The notes: a model not told the origin generated them from the sequence alone. DNA of 64,000 nt from Acidimicrobiales bacterium (GCA_047638595.1 JBLIMJ010000002.1:640-64639), one strand, 5' to 3'; shown: positions 3-18,806, counted from the first letter of the stretch. Numbers and translations are program-made.

Positions 3-329
3 ATGGATGTCGCAACAGCTCGTATCTATAAAGATGCCATTAGCAACGAAGGTCGCGCGTATGGCGCCGGTATAGCGGGATCAATTGCTGAAGTGAAAAA
101 ACAAGTACAGGGTCGACTTGATGGAGAAACAAGGCGTTTTAAAGCAATGTACGGTGTTGACCCTTATCGCACATCAAATTTTGACCTTGTGATTAATACT
201 GCGCGCCATAGTCCTCAGACAGTCGCATTGACTGTGTTTGATACCTACAAAAAATGGTTAAAATCAGATGAATGGACACCGGTGCATTCGGAGGTGCCGA
301 TGGGCTTTTCCTACGACAACCGATATTAA
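3..329 (+). CDS. C-terminal fragment of a cytidylate (CMP) kinase-like protein (5-prime truncated by window edge) with a short extra C-terminal tail
   Basis: IAEVKKQ..RLDGETRR..DLVINTARHS..TV resembles Cmk C-terminus (LAEIKERD..ADALVLDSTTLSIEQV); ORF open to window start. Confidence 0.4.
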   Translation: MDVATARIYKDAISNEGRAYGAGIAGSIAEVKKQVQGRLDGETRRFKAMYGVDPYRTSNFDLVINTARHSPQTVALTVFDTYKKWLKSDEWTPVHSEVPMGFSYDNRY

Positions 330-13264: not shown

Positions 13265-13957
13265 TTACGCTGTTGCCTTTTCATTCTTCTTAGCAGCTCG
13301 ATTTGCAAGTGCTTCGATAGAAACAGACGGGTCTGCGACAATCACATATTTGTAAGTAAGAAGATCAACAGTGTTGATGTCCTTAGCTTGTACAACTTCG
13401 ATATTACCGAAGTTTTGGAAACTTTTTTCAGTGTTCTCGTCACGCTTTGAAAGTACTACAAGTGCTGTATTCTTTCGCTTTGTTGCGAGTTCTTCAATAC
13501 CAGTTCCCTTTGCAAGTGCTACTACTGACGCTTTTGCTTCTGATGCTTTTGGAGCTTCAAATGCAAAGTTGTCGACGAAAATCATCTCACCATCAGCAAA
13601 TTTCTTTGAGAGTGTGATTGCGAAAGCTTTCGCTCGCAGATTTTTGTTAATTTTCTTTGAGTAGTCTTTTTCACTTCGAGGTCCGAAGGTAACACCACCA
13701 CCTGACCAGATCGGTGAACGTCGAGAACCGTGTCGCGCACGACCTGTTCCCTTTTGCTTCCATGGCTTTGCACCACCTCCGCGTACTTCACTTCGATCCT
13801 TTGTGTGTGCGGTACCTGCGCGTGCGTTGCTTTTCATTGACACAACAACCTCGTGTACAAGGTCAGCGTTCCAGTTTACACCGAATACTGATTCCGGAAG
13901 TGTTACCTTACCGTTTTCCTTTCCATCTTGAGTAAATATTTTTGTATCCATAAGCAT
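13265..13957 (-). CDS. rplD: 50S ribosomal protein L4
   Basis: KPWKQKGTGRARHGS motif. Confidence 0.9.
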   Translation of the reverse strand: MLMDTKIFTQDGKENGKVTLPESVFGVNWNADLVHEVVVSMKSNARAGTAHTKDRSEVRGGGAKPWKQKGTGRARHGSRRSPIWSGGGVTFGPRSEKDYSKKINKNLRAKAFAITLSKKFADGEMIFVDNFAFEAPKASEAKASVVALAKGTGIEELATKRKNTALVVLSKRDENTEKSFQNFGNIEVVQAKDINTVDLLTYKYVIVADPSVSIEALANRAAKKNEKATA

Positions 13958-14577
13958 TACACATTTCGTACCTCTACTAATGTTCCTTTTCGACCTGGTA
14001 CTGCTCCACTTACAAGAAGTAGATTTTCTGCAGCGTTTACTTGTAGTACGCGGAGATTTTTGACCGTTGTCTGGTCAGATCCCATACGTCCTGCCATTCG
14101 TGTTCCTTTAAATACACGTGCTGGCCCTGTAGCTCCAATTGAACCAGGTGCTCGCAACGTGTGTTTCTGTCCGTGAGTAGCTTTATTACCTTTAAAGTTA
14201 TATCGCTTTACTACACCTTGGAATCCTTTCCCTTTCGAGATTGCTGCAACAACAATGCTGTCTCCTGCTTCAAAAGTTGAAGCTTCAACTATTTGACCTT
14301 TTTCAAGACCATCCACTGATTCGTCGTAGTTTACTCGTGTTCGGAATTCCTTCACATGTCGGAAGTTTCCACCAGTGTGTCCACGTTCGGCCTTAGGCAC
14401 AAGACTCTCTCGTCGAGATCCTGTTGCTACCTGTACCGCACTATATCCGTCTTTCTCTTGCGTCTTCACTTGCGTGATGGTCGCTGGAGATACTCGGAGG
14501 ATAGTTGCTGCGTGACAAGTTCCGTCAGCGTCAAACACCTGCGTCATCCCTTCCTTCGTCCCTAAAATAAATTTCAT
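13957..14577 (-). CDS. rplC: 50S ribosomal protein L3
   Basis: MKFILGTKEGMTQVFD..; GKGFQGVVKR. Confidence 0.92.
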   Translation of the reverse strand: MKFILGTKEGMTQVFDADGTCHAATILRVSPATITQVKTQEKDGYSAVQVATGSRRESLVPKAERGHTGGNFRHVKEFRTRVNYDESVDGLEKGQIVEASTFEAGDSIVVAAISKGKGFQGVVKRYNFKGNKATHGQKHTLRAPGSIGATGPARVFKGTRMAGRMGSDQTTVKNLRVLQVNAAENLLLVSGAVPGRKGTLVEVRNV

Positions 14578-14627
14578 TTATTTAATTGAACTAGTCTAAT
14601 AATAGTAGCTTTGTTAGACCAACAAAT

Positions 14628-14697
14628 GAGAAATCGCACCGTTTTGGCGCGAGCAGAATGCTCACACAAAAACGGTGCGATTTCTGCCCATTGGTTC
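14628..14697. promoter_or_regulatory. 70-nt hairpin with perfect 17-bp outer stem (AGAAATCGCACCGTTTT/AAAACGGTGCGATTTCT) and inner hairpin GAGCA-GAA-TGCTC, upstream of rplC
   Basis: read from sequence; architecture like the other hairpin-in-hairpin modules. Confidence 0.5.
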
Positions 14698-15140
14698 TCA
14701 TGTCTGCAAGCAAACAATCATCGAACATAGGTCTTTTAAAGCTGGGAGTAGTATACGTATTTATACAATAATTGCAAGACATTCATGGTTACTTTTATTG
14801 GTACAAATTAACAAGCGCAGCGTTTAAAAAGGCGTGATGATTGCACATTTCGTAGTAATAACAATAGTGACGGTACCGCGACCACTCCAAAAGGTATAAG
14901 TTTTGCTACCTGCATCATTAATGAAGACAGAACGCCTCTTAAAGGTTACGAGGGTCATATCTGCCTGATGGATCATCCAGAACATTCAGAAGATTCCGAA
15001 CATTCAGGGACGTGGTGGTATCTATAAGAGGAGGAAAGGTAAGCATACCCCATCTCGGCGATATCTCTTCAAGATGTTGCGTTTGGCTAAAAGTGTAGTA
15101 CTGTTGCACTAAATTAGTACATCAACCATGGGAGATACCG

Positions 15141-15572
15141 ATGAGCAATTCAGATGGAAAAATAATAGTTGCAACAGCTGATGTTGGTGCTGTTCTTGCT
15201 CTGTTGAAACAGCTTGAGCTAGACACAAGTCTTATATTCACAACATCAGGTGAACCACTTGATGAAGGGGCGTTCGAGCGCCTCGGAGCAGAAGTCCGAG
15301 AAATATTAGCGACGCGTAACCTTCCTGTAGCAGATGTTTTGAGGCTTATGGAAAAGGTTGTGAGTGAAGAACCTCCAGTCCTTGCATTGCTGGATGAACT
15401 GTTCAGACCGCAGAAAGGACTCGAACTATTTGCTCCAATGGAAGCACATATGTTGTCAGACATTCCCATAATTCATCTGATTGAAGAGAAGCCGCACCGG
15501 GCATTCGACAATGGCGCAGAAATTCGTTCTGCAAAAGGAGCACGGAAAAAACAAACTCGTTTCAACACCTAG
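15141..15572 (+). CDS. hypothetical protein (143 aa) inserted between rpsJ and rplC on the opposite strand
   Basis: GGAGA RBS 6 nt before ATG; own terminator at 15627-15660; antisense ORF 15122-15469 is low complexity. Confidence 0.55.
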   Translation: MSNSDGKIIVATADVGAVLALLKQLELDTSLIFTTSGEPLDEGAFERLGAEVREILATRNLPVADVLRLMEKVVSEEPPVLALLDELFRPQKGLELFAPMEAHMLSDIPIIHLIEEKPHRAFDNGAEIRSAKGARKKQTRFNT

Positions 15573-15626
15573 CGCGGAAAGTACCCGAAGGCCACCTTGG
15601 TCTTCGGGAATTTTTATACATATAAC

Positions 15627-15660
15627 AAAAGACCGACAGCTTAGCTGTCGGTCTTTTGTT
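15627..15660 (+). terminator. AAAAGACCGACAGC-TTAG-GCTGTCGGTCTTTTGTT intrinsic terminator
   Basis: perfect 14-bp stem with T-run. Confidence 0.65.
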
Positions 15661-15795
15661 ATCCTCACGGACTATCAAATTTTCTTAAAATTGATGAGCT
15701 GCAAGGCGAGATGAAGTTTTATCGGGAGCGGTACATAGGTACCGTGACTGATAAAACTGAAATCTCAACGCCGCAGATCGCTCATTTAAGGAAAT

Positions 15796-16149
15796 TTAGA
15801 TCATTTTCACGTCGATGTTCACACCTGAGGGTAGTGACAAGTTCGTGAGTGCTTCAACCACTTTCGCATTCGGTTCCATGATGTCGATTACACGTTTGTG
15901 CATTCGCATTTCGAATTGTTCTCGCGCATCCTTGTGGACAAATGACGAACGGTTGACTGTGTATTTCTTGATTTCCGTTGGAAGCGGGATTGGTCCTACC
16001 ACTTTTGCGTCGAAACGCATTGCAGTATCGATAATCTGCTTTACAGATGCATCAAGAATCTTGTGCTCATATGCACGGACACGGATTCGAAGCTTTGGAG
16101 TTGCGTCCTTTGCTTCTTTCTTTGTGTCTTTTTTAGATGTTGTAGCCAT
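15796..16149 (-). CDS. rpsJ: 30S ribosomal protein S10 (ATG at MATTSK; ORF track start is TTG 7 codons upstream)
   Basis: RIRVRAYEHKILD..GPIPLPT.. Confidence 0.9.
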   Translation of the reverse strand: MATTSKKDTKKEAKDATPKLRIRVRAYEHKILDASVKQIIDTAMRFDAKVVGPIPLPTEIKKYTVNRSSFVHKDAREQFEMRMHKRVIDIMEPNAKVVEALTNLSLPSGVNIDVKMI

Positions 16150-16205
16150 AATAATTAATTGCTTTCGCAAACTTGCTAGATTGCTTTATATGCAAGACGT
16201 GTGAG

Positions 16206-16250
16206 GAATGAAACGCGAGGCGTACGTAAGGTACGATGAGCGTTTCATTA
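16206..16250 (-). terminator. tuf-rpsJ intergenic hairpin-in-hairpin: outer AATGAAACGC/GCGTTTCATT, inner GGCGTAC-GTAAG-GTACGATGA
   Basis: read from sequence; member of CGTAC..GTACG module family. Confidence 0.55.
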
Positions 16251-16290
16251 CCGAAACACAACGCAGCAGATGAAGTAATATGCGAGTTTG

Positions 16291-17481
16291 TTAGGCTACG
16301 ATTTTAGTAACTACGCCGGCTCCTACTGTCTTACCACCCTCACGGATAGCAAAGTTTGTCTGTTCTTCCATAGCTACAGGAGCTACAAGCTTCACTTTGA
16401 AAGTTGCAGTTTGTCCAGGCATAACCATTTCAGTACCTTCAGCAAGTGTTACGTCACCAGTTACGTCCGTTGTTCGGATGTAAAACTGTGGTTTGTAACC
16501 TGAGAAAAATGGAGTGTGACGCCCACCTTCTTCCTTACCAAGTACGTATACTTCAGCTTCGAACTCAGTGTGAGGAGTTACAGACCCCTTAGCAGCAAGC
16601 ACTTGACCTCGGTGTACCTCTTCTTTCTTAGTACCTCGTAGAAGGATACCTGCATTGTCTCCAGCTTGTGCTCGATCCAGTTGCTTGTTGAACATCTCAA
16701 CACCTGTAACAGTAGTTGTTGCAGTGTCTTTCATTCCAACAATTTCAATTTCCTCTCCAACCTTTACAGCTCCTCGTTCTACACGACCAGTTACCACAGT
16801 ACCACGTCCTTCAATTGAGAAAATGTCCTCAACTGGCATAAGGAATGGCTTATCAAGATCTCGTTCTGGAATCGGGAAGAAGTCATCCATTGCTTGCGTA
16901 AGCTCAAGAACTTTCTTACCCCATTCTCCAGCAGGATCTTCAAGAGCCTTAAGTGCTGAACCTTTAATGATAGGTGCGTTTTCGCCATCAAATCCGTTTT
17001 TTGTAAGCATTTCTCGAAGCTCTTCTTCAACGAGCTCAAGCATTTCTTCATCATCAACCATATCGCACTTGTTCATAAATACGATCATGTTTGGTACACC
17101 AACTTGCTTTGCAAGAAGTACGTGCTCACGAGTTTGTGGCATCGCACCATCCGTTGCAGCAACTACAAGTACCGCACCGTCCATCTGCGCTGCACCAGTA
17201 ATCATGTTCTTAATGTAGTCCGCGTGACCTGGCGCATCAATGTGTGCGTAGTGTCGATTTGGAGTCTCATACTCAGAGTGAGAAAGAGAAATAGTGATAC
17301 CTCGCGCCTTTTCCTCTGGCGCTTTGTCAATATCCTCTACAGCTTTAAGGTTTGCTGTGTAACCTTCACCAGCTTGTGCTAGTACGTTTAGAATTGCAGC
17401 TGTAAGTGTAGTCTTACCGTGGTCTACGTGACCAATAGTTCCTACGTTTACGTGCGGCTTAGTTCGATCGAAATCTGCCAT
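16291..17481 (-). CDS. tuf: elongation factor Tu
   Basis: 396 aa; [22 protein letters not shown] motifs. Confidence 0.97.
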
Positions 17482-17717
17482 AATAATAGCTTAACTTTAA
17501 TAAATATATACCGCACACGGCTGCTTCCTAATTTTAATATAAAAATAAAAAGCTTCTCCAGTGCAAATGTAGGGCCGCGAGAACATCGCGCCACATTTCC
17601 ACTGCAGGTATGACAATGAGCAGTATAGTTTCCCCGACACAGTATAAGTCGTATCGGTGCGGCAATAGTACCAGAATCGACCTTTTTTGCAAGCGATATT
17701 CTGGACCAGAATACAAA

Positions 17718-17757
17718 CAAACCGCACAATCTCGCGCATGCGATTTGATTGTGCGGT
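17718..17757 (-). terminator. AACCGCACAATC..ATTGTGCGGTT 12-bp stem with palindromic CGCATGCG loop, 3-prime of hypothetical gene
   Basis: read from sequence. Confidence 0.5.
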
Positions 17758-17764
17758 TATTACT

Positions 17765-18364
17765 TTATGGCGGTTTTCTATTTGAATTTGCTGCCAACGC
17801 CTGGCCCGGGTGAGTCACAATCTGACCATAGGTTTCGGGCACAGAGGCCCACACACTATCATCCGGTTGTGTTAACACTTCAGTCAGCTTGCTTTCAATG
17901 CGTTTCAGAAAAGCATGTTGCGCGTAACAAGCTTTATCAGCTGAAGCTACATATAGTTCATAAGGGCTACAGAGCATGTAGGTATGACCAACCCAAATGT
18001 TACTCACTGAAATCTGGGCTAGTTTATTTTCTTTGAACCAAAACGTTGACATTTTTTTAATCAACGGTTCATCACGAAAAAAATCAACTGAGCATTCCTC
18101 GAGCAAACCAAGCCGACTCAGAATAGTTTCGTCTGAGGCACTAGTTTCTAGTTGTAACACTAGAGACGCAGCTGTAGAGACCCACAAATCATCTGCTTCA
18201 GTCATGCCTCCTCTAACTTCACAACCAAAGGAGCAGTCATCGTACTCTTTCAAAAAGACTAACTTATCATCAGTATGTCCAGCTTCCCAGTCATAAGCTT
18301 CAAATATTGGGTTTAAAGGATCAAACATTTGCGTAACTCCATGGTTGCAAAATTTCTTCTTCAC
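17765..18364 (-). CDS. hypothetical cytoplasmic protein (199 aa) located between tuf and fusA
   Basis: ORF, no recognisable family. Confidence 0.5.
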   Translation of the reverse strand: MKKKFCNHGVTQMFDPLNPIFEAYDWEAGHTDDKLVFLKEYDDCSFGCEVRGGMTEADDLWVSTAASLVLQLETSASDETILSRLGLLEECSVDFFRDEPLIKKMSTFWFKENKLAQISVSNIWVGHTYMLCSPYELYVASADKACYAQHAFLKRIESKLTEVLTQPDDSVWASVPETYGQIVTHPGQALAANSNRKPP

Positions 18365-18585
18365 GGTCGAGTATGCATAATTTTAATGAATATGTAAAGC
18401 AAAAGACCAGCCAGTGCCGGTCCTTTGCTTTATTGGTCTTCAGTCATTAGGGTCAAGTTTCTAATTAGCTAATCGGTATATAGAGAGAGTAAATCATCAA
18501 CTTTTAATCCTTACTTTCACAAACGAATGATATCGTAAAAGTTTACTTTTATGATTCATGAGTGCAGGGAAAGAAAATTTATTTA

Positions 18586-18662
18586 CAGGATCTGTTCAGG
18601 TTATCGCTATTTTTACTAAGGTAAAAATAGCTGGTAACCTTCATTAAGACCTCACGAAGAAT
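18586..18662. repeat. copy A of 77-bp structured element (contains GCTATTTTTAC-TAAG-GTAAAAATAGC hairpin) downstream of fusA
   Basis: identical to 18694-18771. Confidence 0.8.
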
Positions 18663-18693
18663 ACTCCTCTGTTTCTTCGGTCTTTTAATCCTT
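18663..18693 (-). pseudogene. duplicated, frameshifted remnant of the fusA 3-prime end
   Basis: ctcctctgtttcttcggtcttttaatcc versus the true 3-prime end at 18807-18833 (cttctgtttcttcggtcttaatgcc). Confidence 0.6.
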
Positions 18694-18771
18694 ACAGGAT
18701 CTGTTCAGGTTATCGCTATTTTTACTAAGGTAAAAATAGCTGGTAACCTTCATTAAGACCTCACGAAGAAT
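18694..18771. repeat. copy B of the 77-bp element
   Basis: identical to copy A. Confidence 0.8.
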
Positions 18772-18806
18772 AAAAATAAGGCACCCTGCGGGGTGCCTTA
18801 TTTTTA
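18772..18806 (-). terminator. fusA intrinsic terminator AAGGCACCC-TGCG-GGGTGCCTT with flanking A/T runs (bidirectional)
   Basis: abuts fusA stop codon. Confidence 0.7.

Follow-up and report, generated by a model that had tools for sequence, protein, structure and literature searches.

A candidate ribosomal-protein leader RNA and the orphan gene orf143 at the rpsJ–rplC junction of a Patescibacteria clade

The 64,000-nucleotide stretch of DNA analysed here (GCA_047638595.1 JBLIMJ010000002.1:640-64639, hereafter the window) carries a gap of 1218 bp (14578-15795) between the ribosomal-protein (r-protein) genes rpsJ and rplC, and this gap is composite, as about one-third of it consists of a terminator, a promoter and a leader RNA for rplC, while the remainder is a lineage-specific cassette. 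The leader is a previously undescribed structured RNA of 145 nt that is found clade-wide in a group of Paceibacteria (Patescibacteria), is supported by covariation and represents a new candidate r-protein leader (r-leader). The cassette carries orf143, an orphan gene of 143 codons on the strand opposite to the operon. We consider the leader the more valuable of the two results, since it adds an r-leader candidate with ~90 distinct sequences from a huge uncultured group, the Patescibacteria, for which no r-protein leader is described in Rfam 15 or in the literature that we searched.

The leader was modelled from a seed of four sequences with a hand-specified structure, followed by iteration of the covariance model (CM); an alignment made with MAFFT only recovered just the base of one helix, P3. 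The CM finds exactly one operon-strand copy before rplC in the window (147 bits) as well as in 20 relatives, and a rebuilt model agrees; in all, the single copy is seen in 21 of 21 testable relatives besides the window. Within the 64 kb the match is single and confined to the operon strand, and nothing comparable was found by CM search in more distant genomes. The leader comprises P0 (AGCUUU/AAAGCU), P1 (AGACC/GGUCU), P2a (GUUC/GAAC) and a P2 hairpin with a CUUG loop, and further elements are a conserved single strand, GAGAACCAAUGGGCA, and the long hairpin P3, which is followed by a U-rich tract. The two arms of P3 (14629-14655 and 14659-14685, 27 nt each) are 89% complementary and their outer 17 bp are perfect, which bears out a 70-nt hairpin with a 17-bp perfect stem that the original prediction, made from the sequence of the window, had described. 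Assigning the structured stretch to the inserted gene is not supported, as the hairpin is P3 of the operon-strand rplC leader and is kept by covariation across ~90 distinct sequences. Of its 15 basal pairs 14 covary, its AAA/UUU pairs are nearly invariant and the 10 nt from the UUU of P3 onward contain on average 6.6 U. The leader region folds with a z-score of -6.6 against shuffles. When the window is compared with the loci of two relatives, L002 and L003, positions 14578-14835 are more conserved than orf143, and the large hairpin changes in sequence yet keeps its pairing. The upstream regions of rplC in relatives share the promoter, the blocks AGACCUAYGUWC and GRACCAAUGGGCA, and two sequence-variable hairpins.

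An exact-pattern scan of metagenome contigs returned at least 120 leader matches, of which 80 loci were fetched. In 75 of these 80, rplC lies on the same strand 69-340 nt downstream of the leader (median ~107 nt), the other five being cut by contig ends. Across an alignment of 89 distinct leader sequences, 93.2% of the leader cells are paired, compared with 76% after shuffling and at most 44% with slid partners; changes on both sides are seen in 34 of the 42 pairs, and cells with a double change number 597 against 169 expected from shuffled data. The folds of minimum free energy (MFE) obtained from single sequences agree with the same structure. The two features that mark r-leaders, a same-strand position in the 5′ untranslated region (UTR) upstream of an r-protein operon that is consistent across genomes and a conserved secondary structure backed by covariation, are thus both present. 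No Rfam 15 family matched the leader at the gathering score in the 64 kb, and a search of 14300-16000 at E up to 10 gave just hairpin-like chance matches to microRNA and small-RNA families.

The promoter of rplC is conserved together with the leader: of 93 distinct loci, 91 have a TTGNNN-16..18-TANNNT motif whose end lies 12-19 nt upstream of the leader, compared with 3 of 93 when shuffled. A Shine-Dalgarno (SD)-like motif at -20..-4 is found in just 5 of 31 window genes and in just 3 of 82 rplC start regions of the clade, and the organism appears to be largely SD-independent. Within the leader, one position pair of P2a takes just two forms, A.G in 54 sequences (GUAC paired with GGAC or AGAC) and U-A in 28 (GUUC paired with GAAC), with no mixed cases; in the window 14722-14725 pairs with 14693-14696, and the pair occupies alignment columns 43/110. 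This alternation between a non-canonical and a canonical pair adjoins the invariant ACCAAUGGGCA, a highly conserved single-stranded segment of the leader. A pairing of the leader segment M1 with the rplC start region was rejected, as it amounts to 4 bp only and is without covariation. A weak match to the leader model (E ~3e-4) lies at 2603-2736 of L033, between tuf and rpsJ of a more distant genome with a short rpsJ-rplC gap, and could be due to chance or be a distant relative of the leader in an ancestral position.

The rpsJ–rplC junction in relatives

The genes of the window follow one another on the minus strand in the order fusA, tuf, rpsJ, rplC, rplD, rplW, rplB and further genes (Table 1). 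The source metagenome-assembled genome (MAG) is labelled 'Acidimicrobiales bacterium' by NCBI (locus tag ACI92I_000096). All of its ribosomal proteins are closest to those of Patescibacteria (Paceibacteria) MAGs, with the window uL3 being 60-83% identical to uL3 of Patescibacteria MAGs named Paceibacteria, Kaiserbacteria or Nomurabacteria, which suggests that the contig is probably misclassified or mis-binned.

In most bacteria the rpsJ-rplC junction measures a few bp. The original prediction had taken this as the norm against which the 1.2 kb stood out, which is sound for most bacteria but not for this clade, where the junction runs from ~270 bp to >8 kb. We measured the distance in 80 genome loci fetched via uL3. 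Of the 20 closest genomes (uL3 identity of 62% or more), 13 have rpsJ and rplC within one fetched locus, and in these 13 the gap measures 352-3718 bp; values of 5-500 bp prevail among genomes that are more distant. In the metagenome loci, 112-8055 nt separate the rpsJ stop from the leader. Cargo-free arrangements are found in L007 (352 bp) and in the metagenome locus L140 (~270 bp), where the order is rpsJ stop, terminator, TTGCAA-17-TATACT promoter, structured leader and rplC. Since L140 constitutes a minimal 'empty' site, ~270 bp can be separated from the insertion as an ancestral, clade-wide module in which the terminator of rpsJ is joined to the promoter and leader of rplC, and the earlier notion of a single 1.2-kb insertion is not supported, on the same grounds. 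Two further metagenome loci (L107 and L133) have the leader and rplC without a preceding rpsJ. Their tuf-rpsJ genes share the strand of rplC but follow only ~3 kb further downstream, and the leader therefore travels with rplC and not with rpsJ.

The content of the slot differs from one relative to the next. It includes enzymes (pirin in three genomes, an alpha/beta hydrolase, and a pair formed by a SpoU and an S-adenosylmethionine methyltransferase), a beta-helix/discoidin protein, a sigma-70 region-4 protein, pilin-like secreted proteins and many orphans, and the same slot is occupied by a DDE transposase in L053 and by MazF in L072. L092, which belongs to the class with 92-93% identical uL3, has a pilin-like gene just upstream of the leader and lacks orf143. 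This comparison of the S10 operon among relatives had been proposed with the original prediction, and it confines orf143 to three loci at the junction.

In the window, homology with L005 reaches no further than the -35 hexamer of rplC and the rpsJ terminator, and the lineage-specific segment between these two points therefore extends over ~14778-15620. It forms a cassette of ~840 bp that is transcribed divergently from rplC and contains orf63 and orf143. The putative -10 element of the cassette has counterparts in L003 (TGgTACATT) and L002 (TGgTATATT), which lie within a highly conserved block. Two terminators stand at its far end. One is a perfect palindrome with CTTTTGTTAT at its end on either strand. 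It is not among the calls of the terminator scan, but corresponds by homology to the hairpin that follows rpsJ in L005, a locus with different cargo and no orf143, and this ancestry identifies it as the predicted terminator of rpsJ. The perfect 14-bp-stem terminator once credited to the open reading frame (ORF) thus exists as a perfect palindrome, but its arms measure 20 nt and it would serve rpsJ. The ORF has a terminator of its own, a stem-loop and T-run downstream of the orf143 stop, in which the hairpin at 15584-15608 is followed by AATTTTTAT; it is the sole plus-strand terminator called by the scan and is conserved in L002 and L003.

The first gene of the cassette, orf63, is broken in the window by a 1-nt deletion after codon 7, near 14860, and its SD is weakened. 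It is intact in L003, L004 and L085-87, with an AAGGAG SD in L003 and L004, and mostly deleted in L002, where orf143 is intact. Between the window and L003 its ratio of nonsynonymous to synonymous change (ω) is 0.17, with 8/7/17 differences by codon position, which marks orf63 as a formerly real gene that has apparently decayed recently. No homologues of orf63 were found outside the rpsJ-rplC locus. The 560 bp first described as a structured noncoding stretch are therefore structured as far as the leader is concerned, but much of the remainder is frameshifted orf63 rather than noncoding DNA. A repeat listed as two copies of gaacattcag is also present, in the form of three copies of a 9-nt unit (14975-15007) that make up an in-frame triplication inside orf63.

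Between orf63 and orf143 lies a hairpin that in L002 and L003 reads CATCCCG/CGGGATG followed by TTGCTTTT, and that in the window shows one compensatory and one disrupting change; it is possibly a terminator or attenuator. Attenuation of the Trp type via a WW-containing small ORF was considered and rejected, as orf63 is an ordinary protein gene by its ω and is dispensable. A type II toxin-antitoxin pair formed by orf63 and orf143 was likewise rejected, given that neither Pfam nor PADLOC gave a match, that the spacer of 113 nt contains a hairpin, and that orf143 stays intact where orf63 is frameshifted (window) or deleted (L002).

The 3′ UTR of rpsJ contains a long imperfect hairpin element which, together with the terminator, folds with a z-score of -8.2 against shuffles. 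It is kept with compensatory changes relative to L003, and L007 and L140 lack it. The window has another copy, ~70% identical and in opposite orientation, at 347-417 between convergent genes. The repeated element spans ~80 nt (347-417 in minus orientation, 15690-15790 in plus orientation) and has the layout GAAGUUU..GGGAG-hairpin-UGAC..AAAACUGAAA; its two window copies also align as peptides (KF-RE-Y--T-T-KTE-S--Q).

No tRNA, transfer-messenger RNA or known noncoding RNA was found in the gap, and neither tRNA genes nor Rfam families (at the gathering score) were found across the whole 64 kb. The fusA-tuf junction of the window is also expanded (17482-18803, 1.3 kb) and contains an orphan ORF of 199 aa in operon direction (17765-18364, minus strand), for which searches of Pfam, PHROG, PADLOC and NCBIfam, as well as tblastn against all fetched loci, gave no match. 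The fusA-tuf gap measures 299-3490 nt in five relatives, and this junction has the appearance of a further variable slot within the str/S10 cluster.

Table 1 Features at and around the rpsJ–rplC junction of the window, in order of position.
Feature	Position	Strand	Details
rplC (uL3)	13957-14577	-	Pfam Ribosomal_L3, E = 5e-20; 83-93% identical to L3 of Patescibacteria MAGs; opens the downstream transcription unit
Leader 3′ tail and rplC translation-initiation region (UUAUUAGACUAGUUCAAUUAAAUAA-AUG)	14578-14603	-	Without SD; similar in relatives
rplC leader RNA, 145 nt	14604-14746	-	CM 143-147 bits, E ~1e-38 to 1e-42
Helix P3 of the leader	14629-14685	-	Inverted repeat; candidate attenuator stem
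rplC promoter, TTGCAA-16 nt-TATACT	14750-14777	-	Sole promoter-like site called in 14400-16300
Putative extended -10 promoter of the divergent cassette, TGgTACAAA	14799-14807	+	Inferred, read by eye
orf63 pseudogene, 63-codon small acidic protein	14837-15027	+	Frameshifted in the window
Intercistronic hairpin (CAUCU.../...AGAUG), U-rich tail	15051-15086	+	Between orf63 and orf143
orf143, 143 codons	15141-15572	+	SD GGGAGA at 15130-15135, 5 nt before ATG
Intrinsic terminator of orf143	15584-15618	+	Scan: 11-bp stem, 7 GC pairs, then AATTTTTATA
Predicted rpsJ terminator, perfect palindrome	15622-15662	Bidirectional in form	20-nt arms, 100% complementary
Long imperfect hairpin element in the rpsJ 3′ UTR, ~105 nt	15690-15795	-	Repeated element
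rpsJ (uS10)	15796-16170	-	Pfam Ribosomal_S10, E = 8e-33; closes the tuf-rpsJ unit

Proposed splitting and regulation of the S10 operon

Taken as a whole, the locus is probably best explained by an S10 operon that has been split, the downstream part having its own promoter and leader, with an open slot at the split and, in the window, an orphan cassette in it. In the clade of Paceibacteria the operon would be split after rpsJ, whose transcript would stop at the intrinsic terminator, and rplC with the genes downstream would restart from a sigma-70-like promoter of their own, giving a transcript that opens with the 145-nt structured leader. The leader may then act as the autoregulatory operator for an r-protein of the operon, either with P3 and its U-tract working as a protein-stabilised attenuator or with the closed P0/P1 junction occluding the start region, or both. 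The stretch between the rpsJ terminator and the rplC promoter would be the open slot in which lineages gain different genes. In the lineage of the window it holds the ~840-bp cassette, transcribed away from rplC and carrying orf63, now frameshifted, and orf143 with its own SD and terminator, and a repeated hairpin element would also have landed in the rpsJ 3′ UTR. Of this picture, the layout of the region, the conserved promoter, the conserved and covarying leader, the exchange of cargo between relatives and the coding nature of both ORFs are shown directly.

The position of the leader, its exclusive association with rplC and the precedents from other organisms argue for autoregulation by an r-protein that the operon encodes, and the leader probably works as an attenuator or operator that responds to an r-protein, for which E. 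coli precedent suggests uL4 and adjacency suggests uL3 as the ligand. The succession of a GC-rich P3 and a U-rich tract resembles an attenuator. Several points weigh against this explanation of the locus. The covariation figures come from an alignment that had been fitted to the leader model, an issue that the slid controls and the independent MFE folds mitigate; P3 is without a classic uninterrupted U-run; and r-protein regulation is argued solely from position and precedent. No mimicry of rRNA emerged when the conserved leader segments were compared with the 16S, 23S and 5S rRNA of the E. coli rrn operon, as they scored no better than shuffled queries. The cassette promoter comes from visual reading and was not called by the promoter scan, and the window has no integrase, att site or target-site duplication by which the entry of cargo could be explained. 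A more specific proposal, that the leader is a new Paceibacteria-clade class of r-protein-sensing attenuator or operator whose arrival with terminator and promoter freed rplC and the genes downstream from their coupling to tuf-rpsJ, and so made a permissive gene-gain slot in which orphans such as orf143 arise or land, seems to us evenly poised between right and wrong.

Mimicry of 23S domain VI had been considered by eye, with 'CCUA(U)GUACG...GGACC' resembling the sarcin-ricin loop and 'CCAAUGGGCAC' resembling the tip of E. coli H96. It was rejected, as the best local alignments to the whole E. coli rrn operon fall elsewhere (p = 0.11-0.89 versus shuffled) and the window's own subclade has GUUC/GAAC and not GUAC/GGAC.

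The lack of detected mimicry to E. coli rRNA does lend something to a different view of the leader, which we think rather unlikely, namely that it is no r-protein sensor but a constitutive 5′ UTR structure (a stabiliser, an RNase processing site or a translation enhancer) or a small-molecule riboswitch. Structured start regions could serve initiation in an SD-less organism, and the conserved single-stranded segment next to the strict A.G/U-A position would suit a ligand pocket. Riboswitches normally control metabolic or transport genes, however, and P3 with its U-tract resembles an attenuator. Moreover, association with the rplC operon only, once per locus, is the pattern of known r-leaders (PMC7247131; PMC3616713). 

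The 'universal' S10 operon appears to be transcriptionally split in a whole clade, with the split point being a hot spot of gene turnover, and both the split and the slot matter where r-protein synteny is used in the binning or phylogeny of Candidate Phyla Radiation (CPR) genomes.

How the cassette came to lie in the slot is a separate question, and one answer, compatible with a hot spot, is that it is the remnant of horizontally acquired DNA from a phage, a plasmid or another mobile element. The SDs of orf143 and of the L003 copy of orf63 are a weak hint in this direction in a genome with so few SD genes, relatives have a transposase and MazF at the same junction, and both genes of the cassette are orphans. 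On the other hand, the G+C content of the gap (0.42-0.48) is comparable to that of its flanks, PHROG and PADLOC gave no matches, no donor was identified, and 14560-15810 contains no transposase or integrase, no terminal inverted repeats and no target-site duplication, nor does the cassette show similarity to anything elsewhere in the window. We regard a foreign origin as an improbable, if reasonable, account of the cassette.

The orphan gene orf143

The opposite-strand gene of 143 aa that had been predicted between rpsJ and rplC stands, as does its strong ribosome-binding site, and it is specific to one lineage. Among 5.8e9 proteins it has two relatives only (67% and 69% identical), making three protein clusters in total; all three orthologues are 143 aa long without indels and lie on the opposite strand between rplC and rpsJ. 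The absence of an obvious family, anticipated from the sequence, is borne out by the lack of matches in Pfam, PHROGs, PADLOC and NCBIfam, and the homology and structure checks that had been called for led to no family, fold or PDB match. An exhaustive search of 1.84e9 representatives with hidden Markov models added just one match, a HYR-repeat adhesin. We rejected homology to HYR (PF02494) because the E of 2e-17 to this protein (P0004) sums 12 near-identical weak repeats, of which the best single one scores 25.8 bits, because Pfam HYR itself gave no match at E up to 1, and because the matched part is predicted to be helical as opposed to the beta-sandwich fold of HYR. The AlphaFold2 model is of low confidence (predicted local distance difference test, pLDDT, 52.6); its N-terminal part consists mostly of helices, with one short strand, and the C-terminus is modelled without confidence. 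A Foldseek search of this model against the PDB returned nothing at E up to 0.001, and a sequence profile search of the PDB nothing below E = 0.87.

Among the six frames, ω is lowest in the sense frame of orf143 (0.32-0.43), which also shows the most changes at third positions, and its ATG, SD, length and stop are conserved in three lineages that are ~21% diverged in DNA. These comparisons indicate that orf143 is a real, lineage-specific gene under purifying selection. Apart from its basic C-terminal tail, the protein is acidic. The tail is highly conserved, with 19 of the last 23 residues invariant, and its charge suggests nucleic-acid binding.

Purifying selection and the nearly invariant basic tail, together with the back-to-back promoters that place the cassette beside the promoter and leader of rplC, could be read as a functional tie between orf143 (with orf63) and the ribosomal operon, in which orf143 would be a lineage-specific factor that associates with the ribosome or regulates r-proteins and acts on its neighbours. 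We hold this to be quite doubtful, as the leader and operon are unchanged in ~100 loci without orf143, the slot holds unrelated genes elsewhere and orf143 has only three orthologues. Neither orf143 nor orf63 is found in any of the 80 metagenome loci, even where uL3 is 92-93% identical. The product of orf143 would rather be an accessory, dispensable cytoplasmic protein without functional tie to the ribosomal genes. That the 143 codons are no gene at all, their conservation stemming from an antisense ORF on the operon strand or from a noncoding function, is scarcely credible: the antisense -1 frame is indeed open for 110-142 codons with an ω (0.47-0.51) not far above that of the sense frame, but its stops vary, it has no conserved start and its product is Ser-rich and of low complexity, while the sense frame has the lowest ω in all three comparisons with the most third-position changes, and keeps its start, SD, length and stop across the diverged lineages with a terminator behind them.

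Comparison with known systems

With the orphan small proteins of CPR/Patescibacteria, orf143 shares its short length, the lack of a family, fast evolution and a narrow distribution, and it stands out among them only by its strictly syntenic position and near-invariant basic tail; overall it is what one expects of a CPR orphan that occupies a variable slot. The slot itself is similar to the variable gene slots known as genomic islets or hot spots, in that constant flanks (the rpsJ terminator and the rplC promoter) enclose content that is unrelated from genome to genome, here including a transposase, a toxin, surface proteins and orphans. It differs from them in lying inside an operon that is normally among the most conserved in bacteria, and in having no evident integrase or att site.

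For the leader, one parallel is found in E. coli, where control by uL4 combines NusA-dependent attenuation with translational repression. The E. coli S10 operon leader, with autogenous control by uL4 of its gene block, is an established precedent (PMC3616713). Both leaders are structured 5′ leaders before the genes rplC-rplD-rplW-rplB, and both have a hairpin and then a U-rich tract shortly before the first cistron. The E. coli leader, however, precedes rpsJ, whereas that of the window precedes rplC after the split; the two resemble each other neither in sequence nor in structure, Rfam gave no match, and the E. coli element is confined to Gammaproteobacteria. A second parallel is the L4-Archaeoglobi r-leader candidate of Eckert & Weinberg (2020), a motif upstream of rplC, rplD, rplW and rplB whose ligand was assumed from precedent (PMC7247131). 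Neither this family nor any other r-leader family of Rfam 15 gave a match in the rpsJ-rplC region even at E = 10. The two candidates are nonetheless alike in being motifs from comparative genomics directly upstream of rplC-rplD-rplW-rplB, and they differ in that L4-Archaeoglobi is archaeal while the leader of the window is a multistem junction with a long P3.

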